From an uncultured bacterium (lineage in GTDB: Bacteria > Patescibacteriota > Minisyncoccia > UBA6257 > 2-01-FULL-56-20), in NCBI GenBank assembly GCA_963705915.1, contig OY970126.1:102753-166752 (forward strand): 64,000 nt of DNA, given 5' to 3'. Under the pieces are notes generated by a model that saw only the letters and a list, made by a program, of their open reading frames with translations, had not been told where the DNA came from and did not search any database. Shown here in pieces: positions 5,284-63,832 of the stretch. Position 1 is the first letter of the stretch. Each line of letters begins with the position of its first letter. A program made the position numbers and the translations under genes.

Positions 5284-7062
5284 ATGGACCTCCTTTACTA
5301 TTACCTCAAGAAATATAAAAAGACACTTTCTCTCACGCTCGTCCTTGCGACGATCAACACCGCGTTTTCGCTCGTCGATCCGCAGGTGTTTCGTCTTATC
5401 ATCGACAACTATATCTCGCAGATCGGTTCGATCTCGCAAAGCGACTTTTTGCGCGGCGTAGGGCTTCTATTGCTGGCATCGGTAACCGCCGCATTCATAT
5501 CGCGCGTGGCAAAAAATTTCCAGCAATATTATGAGAACGTTGCGACCCAGCGGGTTGGCACCGACATGTATGCGGATAGCGTCGCACATTCTTTTTCGCT
5601 GCCCTACAGCATTTTTGAGGACCAGCGTTCCGGCGAGTTGCTCCAAAAACTGCAGAAGGCACGTATTGATACCCAGCAGCTCATGATCAGTTTTGTGGAT
5701 ATCATTTTCGTTTCGCTCGTCGGCATCGTGCTCGTTGTCCTTTACGCATTTTATGTCCACTGGCTCATAGGCCTTTTGTATCTCCTCATCATCCCAACGC
5801 TTGGCACGGTTACTTTTTTCTTAGGACGCAAAATTAAAACGATTCAGAAAACGATCGTCGTTGAATCCGCGAACCTTGCCGGATCAACAACCGAAACGCT
5901 CCGCAACGTCGAACTCGTGAAGAGTCTCGGCCTTGAAGACCAGGAGACGAAGCGCTTGAACGATGTGAATAACAAAGTGCTCGGCCTCGAACTCTCGAAG
6001 TTCAAAGTGATCCGTGGCTTGAGCTTTGGGCAAGGGACCGTCGTAAACGCGATGCGCGCGGCGATTCTTTTTGCGATGCTGTGGCTCATCTTCACGGACG
6101 CGATAACGCTTGGCGAGTTTCTCACGCTTTGGTTTTACTCCTTCTATATATTTTCGCCGCTCGGCGACATCAGTACCGTCGCTGCGCAATATCAAGAGGC
6201 GAAAGGCAGTTTGGAAAAATTGCAGGAAATTTTGGCGATTCCATCGGAAGTGAAGCCGACGAATGCCGTGCAGATCGACACATTGAAAACCATCGATTTT
6301 AAAAAAGTTTCCTTCCAATACCAGGAAGGCAATACTCCCGCCGTGAACGATATTTCATTCACCATCAAGAGCGGCGAGACCGTCGCGTTCGCGGGTTATT
6401 CCGGTTCGGGCAAGACGACACTCATTAAATTGCTCGTCGGACTCTATAGGCCTAATAAAGGCTCAATCGTTTTGAATGGGGTGGATGGGGCGAACGTCGA
6501 TTACGATGCGTTGCGGCGGAAAATCGGCTACGTTTCGCAGGAAACCCAGCTTTTTGCCGGAACGCTGCGCGAAAATTTGTTGTTTGTGAATCCTTCCGCG
6601 ACCGATGACGATTGCTGGGAGGCACTTGAAAGCGCTTCGGTGACCGACATCGCCCATCGCGGCGGCAAAGGACTCGATACGCGCATCGGCGAAGGCGGCA
6701 TAAAAATTTCCGGCGGCGAACGCCAGCGCCTCGCGATCGCGCGCGCGCTCGTCCGCAAGCCCGACCTCATTATCTTTGACGAAGCAACGTCGAGCCTTGA
6801 CTCGATCACAGAACGATCAATCACGGACACCATCAAAGATATCGCGCGTTCGCGTCCTGATCTTATCACCGTCATGATTGCGCACCGGCTTTCCACGATC
6901 TCCCACGCCGATATAATTTATGTTTTGCAAAAAGGAAACATCATTGAGCGTGGCTCACACGCAGAGCTTTTGCGCAACCGCGACGGGCTCTACTCGGCGC
7001 TGTGGAAAGAGCAAAGCGGTGCCGGGGAAGCTTGGGAAGCCTCGCCGGTTTTTGCGGGATAG
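5284..7062 (+). CDS. ABC transporter, fused permease/ATP-binding (type I exporter, MsbA-like)
   Basis: 6-TM N-terminal domain; Walker A GYSGSGKTT, signature ISGGERQRLAIARAL, Walker B LIIFDEATSSLD. Confidence 0.9.
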   Translation: MDLLYYYLKKYKKTLSLTLVLATINTAFSLVDPQVFRLIIDNYISQIGSISQSDFLRGVGLLLLASVTAAFISRVAKNFQQYYENVATQRVGTDMYADSVAHSFSLPYSIFEDQRSGELLQKLQKARIDTQQLMISFVDIIFVSLVGIVLVVLYAFYVHWLIGLLYLLIIPTLGTVTFFLGRKIKTIQKTIVVESANLAGSTTETLRNVELVKSLGLEDQETKRLNDVNNKVLGLELSKFKVIRGLSFGQGTVVNAMRAAILFAMLWLIFTDAITLGEFLTLWFYSFYIFSPLGDISTVAAQYQEAKGSLEKLQEILAIPSEVKPTNAVQIDTLKTIDFKKVSFQYQEGNTPAVNDISFTIKSGETVAFAGYSGSGKTTLIKLLVGLYRPNKGSIVLNGVDGANVDYDALRRKIGYVSQETQLFAGTLRENLLFVNPSATDDDCWEALESASVTDIAHRGGKGLDTRIGEGGIKISGGERQRLAIARALVRKPDLIIFDEATSSLDSITERSITDTIKDIARSRPDLITVMIAHRLSTISHADIIYVLQKGNIIERGSHAELLRNRDGLYSALWKEQSGAGEAWEASPVFAG

Positions 7063-7166
7063 ATTAAACTTTATCGTTTGATTATTTCATTAAAAAAAGA
7101 TAACATTGGTATACAACTGAAGACCGATAAACCCCCCTATGAGCCGAGCTCGGGGGAAAATTCGTT

Positions 7167-9725
7167 ATGGTCACAAACATGGCACACGATAAAATCATCA
7201 TCAAAGGTGCGCGGGAACACAATCTCAAGAACATCAACCTTGAGATTCCGCGCGACAAAATGGTTGTTTTCACCGGCCTTTCTGGTTCGGGAAAGTCGTC
7301 GCTCGCATTCGATACGATTTTTGCCGAGGGCCAGCGTCGCTACATTGAGTCATTATCTGCCTATGCGCGGCAGTTTTTGGGCCGTCTCGATAAGCCGGAC
7401 GTGGATGATATTGAGGGGCTATCGCCCGCGATTTCAATCGACCAAAAAAGCCATTCCTCCAATCCGCGTTCGACCGTTGCGACAATCACCGAGATTTATG
7501 ATTATCTCCGCGTGTTATTCGCGCGCGCCGGCAAGCCATTTTGTCCGACCTGCGGCCGCGAAATCAAAAAACTGACGAATGAAGAGATCGTTGACGTTGC
7601 GATTGATTTTGCAAAGCAGAACGACGTGGCGGCGGGAAAAAAGGGAAAGGGCGCCAGCAACAACCTTGTGATTCTCGCACCCGTCGTCCGCGGCAGAAAA
7701 GGGGAGTATTACCAGATGCTCTACGATTTTTTGAATGCAGGATTTTCTGAGGTCCGCGTCGACGGGAAATATCATTCGCTCCGCGAACGGGTTGAGTTGT
7801 CACGCTATAAGATCCACAACATCGACCTCGTCGTCGACCGCATCCCGGCCGGAATGAATTTTAAAGAAAAAGATAATCGCTTGCGCCTTGCAGAGGCTAT
7901 CGAACACGGCCTCAAATACGGTGAGGGCGTCGTTACAGTCATCACCGACAAAGAAGTTTCTTTATCGGCAAAGTTCACCTGCCCCCACGACGGATTCTCA
8001 TTCCCGGAAATTGAACCACGATTATTTTCGTTTAACAGCCCGTACGGCGCTTGTCCCGAGTGCCATGGCTTGGGCACGAAAGATTTATGGTCGGATGAAA
8101 TCTGTCCGGTCTGCGAAGGCAAGCGATTGCGGGTCGAAAGCCTGAACGTTCTCATCGACGGCAAAAATATCAATGGCGTCGTCGCATTTTCCATTGAGAA
8201 GGCATACGCTTTCTTTGACGGTATGAAATTCAAAAACGCCTCGCTCACCGAGGTTGCCGAAGCGCCGCTCCGAGAGATTAAATCCCGATTAAAATTCATG
8301 AGCGATGTCGGCCTGGAATATCTCACCCTCGACCGGAAAGCGGGGACATTGTCGGGCGGCGAAGCCCAGCGAATCCGCCTTGCCTCGCAAATCGGCTCGC
8401 GCCTTGTGGGTACGCTCTATATATTGGACGAGCCGACGATCGGCTTGCATCAGCGTGATAACGCAAAGCTCATTAAAACGCTCCAGGATTTGCGTGACCT
8501 TGGGAATACCATCATCGTCGTCGAACACGACGAAGATACGATCCGCGCCGGCGACTATCTGGTTGATATTGGCCCAGCTGCCGGCGTCCATGGCGGCAAC
8601 GTCGTGGCAAAAGGGCCGATCCCGGAAATATTCAAAGATACCAAGCAAAATTCGCTCACGCTCCAATATTTGCGCGGCAAACAATTCATCGAAATGCCCG
8701 ACACGCGTCGAAAGGTGGACAGCAAGCAAGAATACCTCAAAATCCGAGGAGCTCACGCGAATAATTTGAAGGATGTTGACGTTGATATTCCGTTGCGCCG
8801 CTTTACGGCGGTGACCGGCGTCTCAGGCTCCGGCAAGTCGAGTTTGGTATACGACGTGCTCTACAAAGCCGTTGCTGACAAGTTGAATAGGGCGACGTAC
8901 AAAGCCGGCGGATACAAATCCATCCTTGGTTTGGAATATATCAACCGGATTATCAACATCGATCAATCGGCGATCGGTCGCACGCCGCGATCGAATCCGG
9001 CTACGTATGTCGGCGCGTGGTCCCATATCCGCGATCTTTTTGCCTCAACCGAAGATGCGCGCGTGCGCGGATACAAACCGGGACGGTTCAGCTTCAACGT
9101 CCCCGGCGGCCGCTGCGAAAACTGCGAAGGCCACGGAACGATTGCGATCGAAATGCATTTCTTACCAACCGTGTATGTGACGTGTGACGTTTGCAAGGGC
9201 AAACGGTTCGACCGCGAAACGCTCGAAGTCGAATACAAAGGAAAAAATATTTTTCAGGTTTTACAGATGACCATCGAAGAGGCTGTGAAATTCTTTGATG
9301 ATATTCCGTGGCTTAAAGAAAAATTGAGCATTCTTGAAGAAGTCGGATTGGGATATTTGGAACTCGGCCAATCGGCGACAACCTTGTCCGGCGGCGAGGC
9401 GCAACGGATCAAACTTTCCGCCGAGCTCGGCAAGCGCGATACGCGCCGCACATTATATCTGCTCGACGAGCCGACAACGGGCTTGCATTTTGCGGACGTT
9501 GATCAGTTGATCAAAGTTTTGCAAAGACTCGTCGACCGCGGGAATACGATTGTCGTCATCGAACACAACCTTGACGTGATCAAAACGGCGGACTGGATCA
9601 TTGATCTCGGCCCCGAAGGGGGCGAGCGGGGTGGCACGATTATTGCAACGGGAACGCCGGAGCAGGTGGTGCGAAAAGCGGGGAGCTTCACCGGCCAATA
9701 TCTCCGAAAGGTGCTTGCCAAGTGA
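7167..9725 (+). CDS. uvrA: excinuclease ABC subunit A (UvrA), lacking the insertion domain
   Basis: [10 protein letters not shown], two ABC modules ([14 protein letters not shown] / [14 protein letters not shown]; [12 protein letters not shown] / [12 protein letters not shown]), Zn fingers. Only ~12 aa separate CPECHGLG and CPVCEGKRL, whereas canonical UvrA has an insertion domain of roughly 100 aa here. Confidence 0.9.
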
Positions 9726-9754
9726 TTGTGGACGCGATTTGATATCATAAAACT

Positions 9755-10033
9755 ATGCCTAAAATCGTTGATGGAAAAATCTACCACGAAGGCCAAAAAA
9801 TTGGCTGGATTGACGGTGAACATATCCGCGGCGAAAGCGGTAACAAACTCGGCTATTGGCAGGGTGATTTCATCTACAATGACGAAGGCCGCAAGATCGC
9901 GTATATAAAAGATGATGAGCTGCACTTTGAGAATGGCCAACCTTCGATTTCGCTTCAGCACATCAATGAAAAAATCGAAGGGACGTATCCGTTGAACGTA
10001 AAGTGCGCCGTTCACGCATTACTCGAAGATTGA
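9755..10033 (+). CDS. hypothetical short repeat protein (G-x-K-I-G/A-[WY]-I repeats, MORN-like)
   Basis: 92 aa: GQKIGWIDGEHIRGESGNKLGYWQGDFIYNDEGRKIAYIKDDELHFENGQ shows ~11-12 residue periodic repeats; sits between uvrA and uvrC. Confidence 0.4.
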   Translation: MPKIVDGKIYHEGQKIGWIDGEHIRGESGNKLGYWQGDFIYNDEGRKIAYIKDDELHFENGQPSISLQHINEKIEGTYPLNVKCAVHALLED

Positions 10034-60939: not shown

Positions 60940-61011
60940 GCCGGAGTAGCTCAATGGCAGAGCAGCGCTTTTGTAAAGCGAAGGTTGGAGGTTCGACTCC
61001 TCTCTCCGGCT
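60940..61011 (+). tRNA. tRNA-Thr (anticodon TGT)
   Basis: Hand-folded cloverleaf: acceptor gccggag/ctccggc, D stem gctc/gagc, anticodon loop tttgtaa, T arm ggagg-ttcgact-cctct; one G-A mismatch at 27-43. Confidence 0.75.
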
Positions 61012-61075
61012 CATGGATAGCGCCGTCGCTGTTTTTTTAATCAATTTTTAATCTTGCGTTGTTATACTGGGTTGA

Positions 61076-61660
61076 ATGATAGAAAGGTCCGTACTTTCAG
61101 GCTTGTATAAAGATCGTCAAAAATCAATGCAAGAAATTGCAGATTTTTTAGGTTGCTCGTTGCACCAAGTCGTTTTTTGGATGAAAAAATATGGTATCAA
61201 GGCTCGAAGTCGTAGCGAGGCCATCTATATAAAAAATAACCCCAACGGCGATCCGTTCAGCGTCGATCTTTCAAGCGATCCAGAAAAAATGAAACTCCTT
61301 GGATTAGGTATCGGACTTTATTGGGGTGAAGGAACAAAAGCAAGCAAGGGATCAATTCGGCTAGGTAACACAGATCCGAAACTTATTAAAACTTTTATAG
61401 AGTTTCTTGAGAAGATATTTCATATCAAAAGAGATAAGCTAAAGTTTGGATTGCAGTTATTTACTGACATCACTATTAACGAAGCGCTGGACTTTTGGAC
61501 CAAAAAACTTAATATACAAAGGAGCCAAATCAACAAGCCAGTAATTACAAAGTCTGGTTCGTTGGGTACTTATCGAAAGAAGAGCCAATACGGCGTACTG
61601 ACGGTTATGTATCACAACAAAAAGCTCAGAGACATTCTGATGGGTTTATTGCCGATGTAG
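61076..61660 (+). CDS. HTH + LAGLIDADG-like homing-endonuclease-family protein
   Basis: N-terminal HTH (MQEIADFLGCSLHQVVFWMKKYGIK); LLGLGIGLYWGEGTKASKGSIRLGNTD...LIKTFIEFLEKIF aligns to single-motif LAGLIDADG (helix + GxG + beta) proteins; stop codon overlaps 5' end of intron-containing tRNA. Confidence 0.45.
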   Translation: MIERSVLSGLYKDRQKSMQEIADFLGCSLHQVVFWMKKYGIKARSRSEAIYIKNNPNGDPFSVDLSSDPEKMKLLGLGIGLYWGEGTKASKGSIRLGNTDPKLIKTFIEFLEKIFHIKRDKLKFGLQLFTDITINEALDFWTKKLNIQRSQINKPVITKSGSLGTYRKKSQYGVLTVMYHNKKLRDILMGLLPM

Positions 61661-61917
61661 CTCAGTTGGTAGAGCAACTCCATGGTAGACCGAGAGGTCG
61701 TGCCCACGATTAAGGAAACTTATTCGTGAATCCCGAATTACGGTCAAAGACCTTCGCGGGTTAAGACCGTGGCGAGTGCATATTCGCCCGAACGACTGAC
61801 AAGGGGCGCTACGCTGCAAACAGTATGCGCAAGATACAGTCTAATCCTCATATAAGATGTTCGAAGTTGAGGTATCAATGAAGGAGTAGGTCGCCGGTTC
61901 AAATCCGGCCATCGGCT
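61651..61917 (+). tRNA. tRNA-Thr (anticodon GGT) interrupted by a ~194-nt group I intron after position 36
   Basis: Exon 1 61651-61686 (acceptor gccgatg, D arm gctc-agttggta-gagc, ac stem actcc, loop atggt); exon 2 61881-61917 (aa, ggagt, aggtc, T arm gccgg-ttcaaat-ccggc, catcggc, t). Exons assemble into a perfect 73-nt cloverleaf. Confidence 0.7.
61687..61880 (+). ncRNA. group I intron (small, Azoarcus/IC3-like) in tRNA anticodon loop
   Basis: 5' exon ends in U, intron ends in G; internal segments resemble group I core (cggtcaaagacc; gcgggttaag; gactgac...acagtc P7-like pairing; caagatacagtctaa). Confidence 0.55.
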
Positions 61918-61958
61918 CAAGGTTGATTTTTTCTGCCGGGCATAGTACGATATTCCCC

Positions 61959-62181: not shown

Positions 62182-62255
62182 GGGAGCTTAGTTAAATGGT
62201 ATAACTGCGGTCTCCAAAACCGCCGTCGGAGGTCCGATTCCTCCAGCTCCCGCCA
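62182..62255 (+). tRNA. tRNA-Trp (anticodon CCA), CCA end encoded
   Basis: gggagct/agctccc acceptor, D stem gtta/taac, anticodon stem gcggt/accgc with loop ctccaaa, T arm ggagg-tccgatt-cctcc. Confidence 0.85.
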
Positions 62256-62296: not shown

Positions 62297-63832
62297 ATGA
62301 AAAAGATAGGCATTTGGGTGGCCGTGATAGCGTTCATCGTAGTTTTCCCTCATAGCTTTATTGCAAACGCGCAGAATGTTCCGCCGCCAACGGTGCCGAC
62401 GGGAGTTTCTGCATACATCACCCAAGCAGGACAAGTATATGTTTCCTGGAATCCAGCCTCGAGCACCATCGGGATCGAAGGATATTATCTTTATCGCGAC
62501 GGACAAGAAATTGCGAACACGCCCGGTTTGCTTTTTTATACCGACAATGCGCCGGCCGGTAGTCACACCTACAGCGTGAGCGCTTACGATTCGGAAGGCA
62601 ACACCTCGGGGCAGTCTGCGCCGTCCCAGGTTATAACCCTTGTGCAAGACCAACCGCCGACCGCTCCCACGAACATCACGTTCATTCCGTCGTCTTCGTC
62701 GGTAGCTTTTTCTTGGGATGCTGCCACGGATAACATTGCGGTCATCGGCTACTACATCTATCGCAACGGCCAAAAATTAATTCTGCAGAATGCGATCACC
62801 GGCACAAGCTTCACCGATACCGGACTTGCAACAGGCTACACCTATAGCTATCAAATCGGAGCGTACAACGCGCAAGGGTACATCACGCGATCAGCGCCGA
62901 TAAACGTGACAACAATTTTTGACATAACGCCGCCGTCGGCGCCAAGCAACGTGACAGCAAAAGCGATTTCATCTTCTGAGATAGACCTTTCCTGGCATCC
63001 CGCAACGGACAATATTGCCGTTGTGAATTATGCCGTATATAGAAATAGTCAGCTGCTCGGTTATGTAAACGGCACGAGTACAACCTACGCTGACACAGGG
63101 TTGTCGGCTAACACCTTATATTCATATCAAATTCAGTCGGTTGATGAAGTTGGCAATGTTTCCACGTTGAGCATCCCGCCAGCAACCGCATCGACGCAGC
63201 CGCAGGATCTCACGCCGCCATCGATCCCATCGAATATCCAATATGTTTCGCCCTCGACTTCAGAGATCGATCTTTCGTGGCATTCCTCAACCGACAACGT
63301 CGGTGTCGCCGGATATTATATCTATCGAGACGGAAACGAAATTGGGAGTACGGCCTCTACAACCTATGCCGACACCGGCCTTGCAACCGACACAACCTAT
63401 CAATATGCCATAAAGGCATACGATGCTGCAGGAAATATTTCCCCGCAGCAATCGATTGGCGCGACAACGCTCATCAATAATCCCGTGGCGCCGATGCAGA
63501 CGAGCACGCCGCCGCAAGTGCCGCCATCTTCTCCGCCGCCAAGTACGCCTCCGTATTCACCACCGTCAACGCCGCCGCAAACGCCGATGTTCACGTTCAC
63601 AACCGGACTTTACTTCGGCATGCGTGGGGCGAATATAGTTGATTTACAAACGGTGCTTATAGCACAAGGCGACCTTGGCTCGCAATATGCAACCGGCTAC
63701 TTTGGCTTACTCACGCAGGCGGGGGTCCAGAAGTTCCAATGTTCGAAAGGCATCGTTTGTTCGGGGAGTCCCTACACGAACGGCTATGGTTCCGTTGGCC
63801 CCCGCACGCGGGCCGCGTTGAACTCGCTCTAA
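62297..63832 (+). CDS. secreted cell-wall protein: signal peptide, 4 fibronectin type III-like repeats, Pro-rich linker, C-terminal peptidoglycan-binding (PG_binding_1-like) domain
   Basis: Four repeats with (Y)Y(L/I)YR(D/N)GQ and TSY/TYxY motifs; PPQVPPSSPPPSTPPYSPPSTPPQTP linker; C-term DLQTVLIAQGDLG...GYFGLLTQAGVQKFQ. Confidence 0.7.
   Translation: MKKIGIWVAVIAFIVVFPHSFIANAQNVPPPTVPTGVSAYITQAGQVYVSWNPASSTIGIEGYYLYRDGQEIANTPGLLFYTDNAPAGSHTYSVSAYDSEGNTSGQSAPSQVITLVQDQPPTAPTNITFIPSSSSVAFSWDAATDNIAVIGYYIYRNGQKLILQNAITGTSFTDTGLATGYTYSYQIGAYNAQGYITRSAPINVTTIFDITPPSAPSNVTAKAISSSEIDLSWHPATDNIAVVNYAVYRNSQLLGYVNGTSTTYADTGLSANTLYSYQIQSVDEVGNVSTLSIPPATASTQPQDLTPPSIPSNIQYVSPSTSEIDLSWHSSTDNVGVAGYYIYRDGNEIGSTASTTYADTGLATDTTYQYAIKAYDAAGNISPQQSIGATTLINNPVAPMQTSTPPQVPPSSPPPSTPPYSPPSTPPQTPMFTFTTGLYFGMRGANIVDLQTVLIAQGDLGSQYATGYFGLLTQAGVQKFQCSKGIVCSGSPYTNGYGSVGPRTRAALNSL

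Follow-up and report, generated by a model that had tools for sequence, protein, structure and literature searches.

A candidate free-standing homing endonuclease gene in the 5' leader of an intron-split tRNA-Thr(GGU) gene of Patescibacteria

The window analyzed here, a stretch of 64,000 nucleotides from an uncultured bacterium of the Patescibacteriota, contains a 194-aa open reading frame (ORF; 61076..61660, + strand) that combines a helix-turn-helix (HTH) with a LAGLIDADG-like domain and runs into the downstream tRNA-Thr(GGU) gene. We propose that it is a free-standing homing endonuclease gene (HEG) lodged in the 5' leader of this tRNA gene and dragging along the ORF-less intron that splits it, a reading to which we give a probability of roughly 55%. 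Such a gene would probably spread both itself and the adjoining protein-less group I intron by gene conversion. The proposal builds on the anatomy of the gene, the similarity of its modeled fold, its conservation, its constant abutment on a tRNA, its patchy presence among syntenic relatives and its statistical link to the intron, all of which were observed in the analysis.

The ORF opens with an ATG at 61076 and closes with a TAG at 61658-61660, which also forms nt 8-10 of the tRNA; its assignment as a putative HEG draws on the ORF list, homologues, an alignment, a fold model and dN/dS. A database search returned 1677 homologues of the window ORF, the family has relatives in 308 GTDB species genomes, and mean column identity is 69% in an alignment of 42 homologues. 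Synonymous sites are saturated, pN ranges from 0.2 to 0.28, and dN/dS is 0.06-0.18 where calculable. The ORF is thus a functional gene under strong conservation and not a chance frame, and the earlier note, which had read these 194 codons as a real gene, was right to do so. The opposite view, that the ORF is spurious or non-coding and simply happens to overlap the tRNA leader, has nothing in its favor beyond the absent curated family assignment; it is already refuted by conservation (the number of homologues and a dN/dS of at most 0.18), the confident two-domain fold of the predicted model also speaks against it, and we consider its probability negligible. The family is large and without a name, belongs to Patescibacteria, and its members are now annotated as "hypothetical proteins."

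The N-terminal part of the protein (aa 1-54; 61076..61237, +) is a helical HTH DNA-binding module, in agreement with the earlier reading. HTH_23 matches the window protein at E=0.012 and 33 of 42 family members, the best at 9e-7, and a match to PHROG "HNH endonuclease" families (E=1e-7) is confined to aa 4-50. The C-terminal part (about aa 66-194; 61271..61657, +) is predicted to be a LAGLIDADG-like alpha/beta domain. Its LAGLIDADG-type motif, LLGLGIGLYWGEG (aa 74-86; 61295..61333, +), includes eight residues that are invariant in 42 sequences (G76, G78, G80, Y82, W83, G84, E85 and G86) and falls largely on a model helix (aa 69-85) that is rich in small residues and ends at E85. In the model, this glutamate occupies the C-terminal end of the helix as a putative metal-binding acid, and paralogues keep the motif glutamate within C-E-G or G-E-G.

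The single LAGLIDADG motif of the earlier note is therefore borne out by the invariance of its acid and by the helix that ends there, but not by any profile at its curated cut-off. LAGLIDADG_3, whose match spans aa 79-114, reaches 13.4 bits on the window protein against a cut-off of 22.5 (E=0.098), so that the profile check proposed in that note stayed below threshold; across the family, it matches 16/42 members at E≤1 (best 0.012) and 0/42 at the cut-off. For the window protein, no LAGLIDADG sequence profile (Pfam LAGLIDADG_1, _2 or _3, or NCBIfam) exceeded its curated cut-off, and the single NCBIfam match, also sub-threshold, was to an RFC small-subunit family (PRK04132). In the model, four strands (93-98, 123-129, 152-158 and 174-180) have helices packed against them in the order alpha-beta-alpha-beta-alpha-beta-beta-alpha, which differs from the textbook LAGLIDADG order of alpha-beta-beta-alpha-beta-beta-alpha. 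Sequence searches of the PDB, with the single protein and with a profile, retrieved HTH proteins and one chance nanobody match and nothing else, and Foldseek against the PDB gave nothing at E≤0.001, its top matches being unrelated alpha/beta folds. WhiA, a non-catalytic regulator that joins LAGLIDADG and HTH, scores level with true nucleases against the window protein, and the WhiA profile did not match it. PADLOC gave a weak match to the HTH alone, so no membership in a defense system is suggested.

We found the ORF directly 5' of tRNA-Thr(GGU), on the same strand, at 81 non-redundant loci. In 52 cases the first tRNA nucleotide precedes the last base of the stop codon by exactly 9 nt, the same overlap as in the window. 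That the stop overlaps the start of the tRNA had been noticed before and is real, but the coordinates are corrected here: the tRNA begins at 61651 and shares 10 nt with the ORF. Paralogues adjoin other tRNAs with the same geometry, namely tRNA-Trp (10 loci), tRNA-Thr(UGU) (5), tRNA-Thr(CGU) (1) and an intron-containing type-II tRNA (1). The ORF-tRNA geometry recurs at five or more different tRNA genes. For two relatives that are only 31-32% identical to the window ORF, P0182 and P0270, the distance to the downstream tRNA-Thr(GGU) is 28 and 36 nt. The tRNA-Trp, tRNA-Thr(UGU) and tRNA-Thr(CGU) genes beside paralogues are intron-less with intact bodies, and tRNA-Thr(GGU) itself is intron-less at 26/79 ORF-bearing loci called by ARAGORN (three duplicates included) and at about a quarter of the 81-locus set. 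The conserved partner of the gene is therefore the tRNA 5' end, not the intron. At seven loci (L010, L019, L035, L054, L071, L072 and L077), the first 10-14 tRNA nt recur in degenerate form at the end of the ORF, with the true tRNA located 15-117 nt downstream of this copy. An insertion inside the tRNA would be marked by a repeat of its first 10 nt ahead of the ORF; we found none in the window.

An extended -10-like element (61060..61068, +), with TG at 61060-61061 and TATACT at 61063-61068, was recognized by reading the sequence and by its enrichment across homologous loci. It stops 7 nt ahead of the ATG and is followed by no Shine-Dalgarno sequence. Among 72 homologous loci, 49 have a TAnnnT hexamer that stops 5-9 nt short of the start codon (25 of them by exactly 6 nt), 29 have a TG-extended -10-like hexamer and just 3 have an SD-like sequence. 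It is this positional enrichment across homologues that argues for a promoter; a generic sigma-70 two-hexamer scan called none before the ORF, and the window ORF contains no -10-like hexamer ending 5-10 nt before tRNA +1. Since the extended -10 element is so near the ATG and no Shine-Dalgarno intervenes, the ORF mRNA is probably leaderless and at the same time serves as the 5' leader of the tRNA. Transcription from the extended -10 promoter would begin at or beside the AUG, giving a leaderless mRNA; translation would end at the UAG made by tRNA nt 8-10, and RNase P would then release the tRNA from the ORF-tRNA precursor. We propose that, owing to this release, the insertion would cost the host little.

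Upstream of this element lie tRNA-Thr(UGU) (60940..61012, +; ARAGORN, Rfam tRNA 66.5 bits) and, after it, a terminator-like hairpin with a T-run (61015-61034; terminator scan). The 5' exon of tRNA-Thr(GGU) (nt 1-36; 61651..61686, +), whose first 10 nt lie in the ORF, was delimited from the sequence, with aragorn -i and by comparison with L004 and L128, whose orthologous tRNA is intron-less. It is followed by a 194-nt ORF-less group I intron at anticodon-loop position 36/37 (61687..61880, +) and by the 3' exon (61881..61918, +; aragorn -i). The ORF terminates within the 5' exon, 36 bp short of the intron, and the gene is free-standing, outside the intron, as first described. The identification of the intron as group I also held up: a U before the 5' splice site and a terminal omega-G are present in 65/65 related introns, and P1-P9 were assigned, with compensatory changes in P1, P2, P5, P6, P8 and P9 and with P3, P4 and P7 invariant, so that the class is supported by comparative sequence evidence. 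Rfam RF00028 did not match the intron, even at E≤10 on 301 nt, and default ARAGORN misses the split tRNA-Thr(GGU). Such tool misses have already been reported for this tRNA-Thr intron type, termed "divergent group I intron" (PMC13011429). Two loci, L017 and L082, were considered as carriers of intron-encoded ORF copies, a third stage of collaborative homing, and rejected; there the ORF simply runs on past the 5' exon and enters the intron in a different frame. Downstream of the split tRNA are rpmG (ribosomal protein L33; 61959..62138, +), a conserved neighbor (ORF list; Ribosomal_L33 Pfam; same position in L003 and L004), and tRNA-Trp(CCA) (62182..62255, +; ARAGORN), which an ORF paralogue adjoins in other genomes and none adjoins in the window.

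The gene is accessory, because syntenic relatives lack it: L134, L166, L128 and L088 retain the order dnaE, tRNA-Thr(UGU), tRNA-Thr(GGU) with the ORF absent. In an unbiased metagenome sample of tRNA-Thr(GGU) loci, drawn regardless of ORF or intron, about 20% carried the ORF. The corrected table for this sample gives 18 loci with both intron and ORF, 17 with the intron and no ORF, 1 with the ORF and no intron and 56 with neither; the intron is present at 18/19 ORF-bearing loci versus 17/73 ORF-less ones (Fisher p=2e-8 on the uncorrected table, for loci that are not phylogenetically independent). The ORF is thus strongly enriched beside the intron, and on this co-occurrence the idea that the gene mobilizes the intron or the tRNA locus survives, although the gene also sits beside intron-less tRNAs. 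The 26/79 intron-less loci nonetheless go formally against the earlier note, which had named presence of the gene regardless of the intron as an outcome that would refute its reading.

On the intron tree, ORF-bearing and ORF-less loci are interleaved. At L171, only a 28-aa C-terminal stub of the ORF is left; beyond this stub, a search ahead of the tRNA at ORF-less loci (18 with the intron and 61 without it) found no ORF remnants, a result that fits gain as well as loss. Identity to the window spans a narrow 52-67% for the ORF and a wide 35-90% for L33 (rho 0.41). In distant hosts we saw no near-identical ORF copies, and the ORF tree has large clades that track the host tRNA type. Saturated dS, the lack of near-identical distant copies and clades sorted by tRNA type would also fit long vertical retention of a useful gene. 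A clean filled-versus-empty pair of near-identical genomes was not found. L116 and L138 were rejected as such a pair, since their 91% downstream identity comes from a serine-recombinase element that both carry, in opposite orientations; L196 was rejected as a partner, being truncated within the ORF, and neither candidate pair defines the left boundary.

From these observations we infer nuclease activity, dimerization, transcript structure, RNase P release, a cleavage site and gene conversion. With one LAGLIDADG-like nuclease domain, the product would have to work as a homodimer, and the N-terminal HTH would add DNA contacts. The protein would cut tRNA-Thr(GGU) loci without the gene, repair from an ORF-bearing copy would bring the ORF into the cut locus, and the ORF-less group I intron would be copied along, which amounts to intronless homing together with trans mobilization of the intron. 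As the intron is only 36 bp from the ORF, co-conversion would be almost unavoidable. Homing by free-standing endonucleases is an established pathway, as is trans or collaborative homing (PMC3984707, PMC2790892). A broader version, which we advance tentatively, is that Patescibacteria harbor a family of LAGLIDADG-type HEGs for which tRNA 5' leaders serve as a safe harbor, with the tRNA-Thr(GGU) lineage acting as the mobility engine of the ORF-less "divergent" intron. Each gene would be transcribed from the tRNA promoter as a leaderless mRNA, terminate at the universally conserved tRNA U8-A9-R10 and be stripped from the precursor by RNase P.

Fixing the target of the enzyme turns the free-standing HEG reading into a sub-variant, strict collaborative homing, which we find doubtful. 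The enzyme would cut intron-less tRNA-Thr(GGU) genes in the anticodon arm, at the site where the intron inserts; presence of the intron would protect the host allele, and ORF and intron would spread as partners. In keeping with this, among alleles with a TCC-type stem in the metagenome sample, the intron is present at 18/19 ORF-bearing versus 17/73 ORF-less loci; in the GTDB set, the intron is present at 64/69 ORF-bearing loci with TCC-type stems, and 20/25 ORF-bearing intron-less alleles carry other anticodon stems. The anticodon arm is also an inverted repeat, which would suit a homodimeric enzyme, and F-CphI with psbA and mobE with I-TevIII provide precedents (PMC3984707, PMC2790892, PMC6083498). 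However, paralogues stand beside intron-less tRNA-Trp, tRNA-Thr(UGU) and tRNA-Thr(CGU) genes with intact bodies, and the family as a whole therefore cannot depend on the intron for immunity. L004 and L149 pair the ORF with an intact CTCC-type intron-less tRNA-Thr(GGU) of the same anticodon arm and would be self-targets if the enzyme cut inside the tRNA body, which also counts against the main reading. Moreover, that the intron is restricted to TCC stems may result from its own P1 pairing, and the ORF-intron association is confounded by phylogeny.

Somewhat less probable still is a domesticated DNA-binding protein, that is, a WhiA-like regulator with an HTH and a degenerate LAGLIDADG domain, for example of the tRNA-rpmG-tRNA-Trp region, which would benefit the host and no longer be mobile. 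Against it, the gene is missing from most relatives of the same synteny, the motif glutamate is invariant in the family, and the domain order is opposite to that of WhiA; paralogues each at a different tRNA gene, a truncated stub and duplicated tRNA 5' ends look like element turnover, not a regulon. A maturase, which the earlier note also raised, would aid the folding and splicing of the divergent intron in tRNA-Thr(GGU). In its favor, LAGLIDADG maturases occur in organelles, the intron is divergent enough to be missed by Rfam, and the ORF is enriched beside intron-containing alleles. Yet 17/35 intron-containing loci have no ORF, which makes an obligate maturase role unlikely, and the ORF-less loci are nested among ORF-bearing ones on the intron tree. 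The gene and its paralogues also occur at intron-less tRNAs (26/79 loci for the former), the intron core is complete from P1 to P9 and supported by covariation, and Patescibacteria tRNA introns of other kinds self-splice in vitro (PMC13011429). We regard a maturase as very improbable.

The reading that we prefer, a free-standing HEG that carries its neighboring intron along, can be set beside several known systems. One is SegB, a free-standing homing endonuclease from the tRNA cluster of T4. Two further phage endonucleases of the free-standing kind, mobE (td intron) and F-CphI (psbA intron), are associated with "intronless," "trans" or "collaborative" homing (PMC3984707, PMC2790892, PMC6083498, PMC2988022). 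Like the free-standing HEGs of phages, the window gene lies outside any intron or intein and beside a conserved target gene, is accessory and patchy, and has an ORF-less intron near enough for co-conversion. It differs from them in nuclease family, being LAGLIDADG-like and not GIY-YIG, HNH or EndoVII-like, and in host, residing in a cellular, reduced Patescibacteria genome whereas mobE, F-CphI and SegB reside in phages. Unlike them, it fills the tRNA 5' leader exactly, is apparently leaderless and has its stop inside the tRNA, and its cleavage and homing are predictions.

Among LAGLIDADG proteins, the single-motif homodimers I-CreI, I-CeuI, I-MsoI, I-CvuI and I-Vdi141I lack an HTH and are encoded within introns of rRNA genes, either group I or archaeal; compared with I-CreI-type homodimers, the model of the window protein differs in strand connectivity, and its sequence similarity falls below profile thresholds. 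The TliVMA intein, PI-PfuI, I-DmoI and I-Tsp061I are two-domain monomers or intein inserts, whereas the window protein has one domain plus an HTH and is free-standing. WhiA (DUF199), a Gram-positive core gene product, carries its HTH at the C-terminus, after two degenerate LAGLIDADG domains that lack catalytic acids; the window protein differs in its one domain, invariant E85, N-terminal HTH and patchy distribution. Intron-encoded endonucleases of tRNA introns include LAGLIDADG proteins in cyanobacterial tRNA-Arg(CCU), HNH proteins in Patescibacteria tRNA-Asn and PD-(D/E)XK proteins in tRNA-fMet (PMC13011429), and the reference list of PMC3984707 gives Bonocora & Shub 2001 for bacterial tRNA-intron endonucleases. 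They share with the window gene a homing-type nuclease gene tied to a tRNA gene with a group I intron, but they are encoded inside the intron, whereas the window gene lies outside it, 36 bp upstream, and its family also occurs at intron-less tRNAs.

Most Patescibacteria tRNA group I introns encode no homing endonuclease, and their horizontal transfer was concluded to be limited (PMC13011429); the tRNA-Thr intron, which encodes no endonuclease, is for that reason currently regarded as poorly mobile. A free-standing endonuclease gene 36 bp upstream offers a concrete, testable route for its movement, and the locus, cellular and not from a phage, would be a candidate case of trans or collaborative homing, a proposed route of mobile-intron assembly. 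The geometry of the gene is unusual, with a probable leaderless start at the promoter, a stop codon within the tRNA body and, probably, RNase P as the means of release, and it raises the question of how translation and tRNA maturation share one transcript. It is also relevant to annotation, since these "hypothetical proteins" sit beside tRNAs that standard tools miss. If active, the family would consist of compact tRNA-gene-specific meganucleases with an accessory HTH. If the proposal is true, the tRNA 5' leader would join self-splicing introns and inteins as a third way of being phenotypically neutral.

The 194-aa ORF reported at 61076-61660 in the earlier note was confirmed on the + strand of the ORF listing, from an ATG at 61076 to a TAG at 61658-61660. 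As that note had observed, its stop codon falls within the next tRNA: the ORF overlaps a split tRNA-Thr(GGU) (61651-61918, +) by 10 nt, the stop codon forming tRNA nucleotides 8-10 (U8-A9-G10). Sequence reading and ARAGORN with introns allowed place the 5' exon at 61651-61686, a 194-nt intron between tRNA positions 36 and 37 at 61687-61880, and the 3' exon at 61881-61918 (all +). The gene thus does lie outside the group I intron, which sits 36 bp beyond the ORF. Default ARAGORN called the flanking tRNA-Thr(UGU) (60940-61012, +) and tRNA-Trp (62182-62255, +) and missed the split tRNA; the Rfam group I intron model RF00028 and tRNA model both miss 61651-61918 as well, so that the genome would be annotated without a tRNA-Thr(GGU). 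In relatives, ARAGORN with introns often misplaced the splice site and called Arg(gcg), His(gtg) or His(atg). Downstream of tRNA-Trp, the window encodes a secreted-looking, repetitive-looking 511-aa protein (62297-63832) that is unrelated to the ORF finding; in the counterpart from locus L001, Pfam recognises fn3 and, weakly, PG_binding_1.

An Rfam search of a 301-nt slice gave no group I intron match up to E<=10. A recent survey reports "divergent group I introns", likewise missed, at 36/37 of Patescibacteria tRNA-Thr(GGU) (PMC13011429; the tool behind it is described in bioRxiv 10.1101/2020.01.27.920355). P1-P9 could be assigned on the window intron, with compensatory changes in P1, P2, P5, P6, P8 and P9, while P3, P4 and P7 are invariant among 63 distinct intron sequences. 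All 65 related introns follow a U that ends the 5' exon and themselves end in G.

The N-terminal helix-turn-helix was borne out by a weak HTH_23 match (E=0.012) and by a helical head at aa 1-54 in an AlphaFold2 model built from a 42-sequence alignment (mean pLDDT 90.7). PHROG families labelled HNH endonuclease match the ORF at E=1e-7 within aa 4-50 only, identifying the head as a module common to phage homing-type nucleases. The proposed LAGLIDADG assignment was supported by the predicted fold but not by profiles. LAGLIDADG_3 matched aa 79-114 weakly (E=0.098, below the cut-off); another weak match was to the NCBIfam replication factor C small-subunit family PRK04132 (E=0.049). When the 42 family members were scanned one by one, LAGLIDADG_3 was the sole recurring non-HTH family (16/42, best E=0.012), and none reached the cut-off for membership of a curated LAGLIDADG family. 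In the model, the head is followed by an alpha/beta domain whose first helix (69-85) bears LLGLGIGLYWGEG and ends at E85; G76, G78, G80, Y82, W83, G84, E85, G86 and K88 are invariant in the alignment. The predicted structure thus supports a LAGLIDADG-like fold that retains the motif acid. Among homologue pairs, synonymous sites are saturated with pN of 0.2-0.28, and dN/dS is 0.06-0.18 where estimable: the ORF product is a functional protein. A spurious ORF was considered and is excluded.

Searches recovered 1677 homologues at E<=1e-3, nearly all of them Patescibacteria proteins without a name. Among GTDB species genomes, 308 contain relatives, and a profile search of cluster representatives returned 1957 clusters at E<=1e-10. 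Some representatives are long proteins with only the HTH module, repeated 5-14 times; P0127 (821 aa), P0136 and P0139, for example, are tandem copies of the ~45-aa module found at the ORF N-terminus. Most of the 1677 homologues lie on contigs of just about 0.8-3 kb, and assemblies may often break at the ORF locus.

In every readable genomic context of the family, a tRNA gene lies immediately downstream. At 81 non-redundant homologue loci the ORF is directly 5' of tRNA-Thr(GGU) and shares its strand. In 52 of these, the first tRNA nucleotide precedes the end of the stop codon by exactly 9 nt; in five the tRNA was not called automatically, and the other loci with a called tRNA have offsets of -37 to +117 nt. 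Two homologues with just 31-32% identity to the window ORF, P0182 and P0270, sit 28 and 36 nt 5' of tRNA-Thr(GGU). Some ORF C-termini (LADVAQR, AEIAQW) are tRNA sequence read in another frame. In seven loci (L010, L019, L035, L054, L071, L072 and L077), the ORF closes with a degenerate version of the tRNA's first 10-14 nucleotides, and the genuine tRNA follows 15-117 nt downstream, showing that ORF and tRNA 5' end were rearranged together as one unit.

More distant paralogues with the same geometry abut other tRNAs: tRNA-Trp(CCA) (L001 4109-4783, L028 4012-4692, L120, L170, L157, L128, L036, L102 and L070), tRNA-Thr(UGU) (L130, L147, L096, L193 and L113), tRNA-Thr(CGU) (L205 538-1173) and an intron-containing type-II tRNA (L093 2085-2705). 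The tRNA-Trp(CCA) paralogues are about 212-226 aa long, HTH plus LAGLIDADG-like with a C-E-G motif, and their stop codon is mostly at tRNA nucleotides 8-10; no paralogue abuts the tRNA-Trp of the window (62182-62255). ARAGORN calls the L093 tRNA Ser(tga), and its group I intron (189 nt) looks canonical.

The gene is an accessory one: it is missing from four relatives that have the same synteny as the window, with dnaE on the minus strand, then tRNA-Thr(UGU), then tRNA-Thr(GGU). The inter-tRNA spacer is 39 nt in L134 (no intron) and 96 nt in L166 (intron present); it holds an NAD-dependent epimerase or decarboxylase-like gene in L128 (no intron) and a NUDIX-type gene in L088. L128 and the window share an identical tRNA-Thr(UGU), and the L128 tRNA-Thr(GGU) differs by 1 nucleotide from the window's spliced tRNA. 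The spacer is a variable slot that carries other cargo in ORF-less relatives. A search of ORF-less loci for remnants found only L171, where just the last 28 codons persist directly upstream of an intron-containing tRNA. Identity to the window is 52-67% for the ORF and 35-90% for ribosomal protein L33, the conserved downstream neighbour, in the same loci (Spearman 0.41), and close hosts can have ORFs more divergent than those of distant hosts (L075, dnaE 73.5% and ORF 52%; L021, L33 42% and ORF 61%).

A serine-recombinase-type gene lies just 3' of tRNA-Thr(GGU) in L116 (about 6058-7148) and L138 (about 8355-9827); the two copies are 91% identical and inverted on otherwise unrelated contigs, so this is probably an integrative element using tRNA-Thr(GGU). 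Lone or duplicated tRNA-Thr(GGU) 3' halves beside unrelated sequence (L125 5289-5399, L144, L161 and L163) resemble att-site scars left where elements inserted into the tRNA 3' end.

We further investigated how the gene might be expressed. In the window, there is a terminator-like hairpin after the upstream tRNA, and a TG (61060-61061) with TATACT (61063-61068) lies 7 nt before the ATG, with no Shine-Dalgarno sequence between TATACT and the ATG. Of 72 homologous loci, 49 have a -10-like hexamer ending 5-9 nt ahead of the start codon (exactly 6 nt in 25); the hexamer has a TG extension in 29, and an SD-like sequence occurs in just 3 loci; the close hexamer and the rarity of SD-like sequences argue for a leaderless mRNA. 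At the ORF 3' end, -10-like hexamers suitably spaced from tRNA +1 are nearly absent (2/52 loci). The exception is a subset of about 12/52 ORF-bearing loci, to which the window does not belong, where conserved R-D-I-L codons form an extended -10 (TGATATAAT or TGATATACT) ending 12 nt before the tRNA, which may be an internal tRNA promoter within the coding sequence. In ORF-less loci, -10-like hexamers peak 8-9 nt before +1. For the window, transcription of the tRNA would run through the ORF, so that the ORF mRNA serves as the leader on the tRNA's 5' side. RNase P, cutting at +1, would free the tRNA and at the same time strip the mRNA of its stop codon and the two codons before it.

ARAGORN called an adjacent tRNA-Thr(GGU) at 79 ORF-bearing loci (a list still containing three duplicates), 53 with the intron and 26 without. 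The gene is thus present whether or not the intron is, an outcome that the earlier note had named among those that would refute its reading. For an unbiased sample, metagenome contigs were scanned for the tRNA 3' exon (120 loci) and those with sufficient upstream sequence were scored. The ORF was present in 19 and absent from 16 intron-containing loci, and present in 2 and absent from 55 intron-less loci (Fisher p=2e-8 for this raw table, the loci being phylogenetically non-independent). Removing L113 and L130, whose ORF is a tRNA-Thr(UGU) paralogue, gives 18 and 17 with the intron, and 1 and 56 without. In GTDB ORF-bearing loci, the intron is restricted to alleles with a TCC-type anticodon stem (64/65), and intron-less alleles mostly have non-TCC stems. 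On the intron tree, ORF-less loci are repeatedly nested among ORF-bearing ones, including L166 inside the window's own clade and the ORF-less/ORF-bearing neighbours L102/L117-L103, L184-L203, L160-L009, L187-L087 and L108-L071; the ORF tree requires at least 7 changes of intron state. Altogether, this shows that ORF and intron are associated yet separable.

The best-supported reading is a putative free-standing LAGLIDADG-type homing endonuclease gene settled in a tRNA 5' leader. Its product would cleave ORF-less alleles, and repair from ORF-bearing alleles would spread the gene; with a donor carrying both elements, the intron, 36 bp away, would nearly always be copied along. Homing would account for the strong association, for ORF-less introns interleaved among ORF-bearing loci through ORF loss, and for the many alleles with neither element. 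In phages, free-standing, trans and collaborative forms of homing are well established (PMC3984707, PMC2790892, PMC6083498). One candidate target is the 5' junction of promoter and tRNA, which is interrupted by the ORF itself; this option fits the paralogues at intron-less tRNAs. Another is the anticodon arm, where the intron is inserted, an option that agrees with the TCC-stem pattern. The separability of ORF and intron speaks against a maturase, which the earlier note had suggested; a domesticated WhiA-like regulator is a further rival.

Neither intron paper (PMC13011429, bioRxiv 10.1101/2020.01.27.920355) mentions the upstream gene, and full-text literature searching found no other description of it. 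The proposal that the gene mobilises the intron or the tRNA locus is partly supported: the gene's link is to the tRNA 5' end, not to the intron, yet as a driver of the intron's spread it is the most plausible candidate. Genes of this kind make up a large family, new and without annotation, that is free-standing, LAGLIDADG-like and marked by an unusual tRNA-leader geometry that recurs; we infer its nuclease activity, its target site and the processing of its transcripts.
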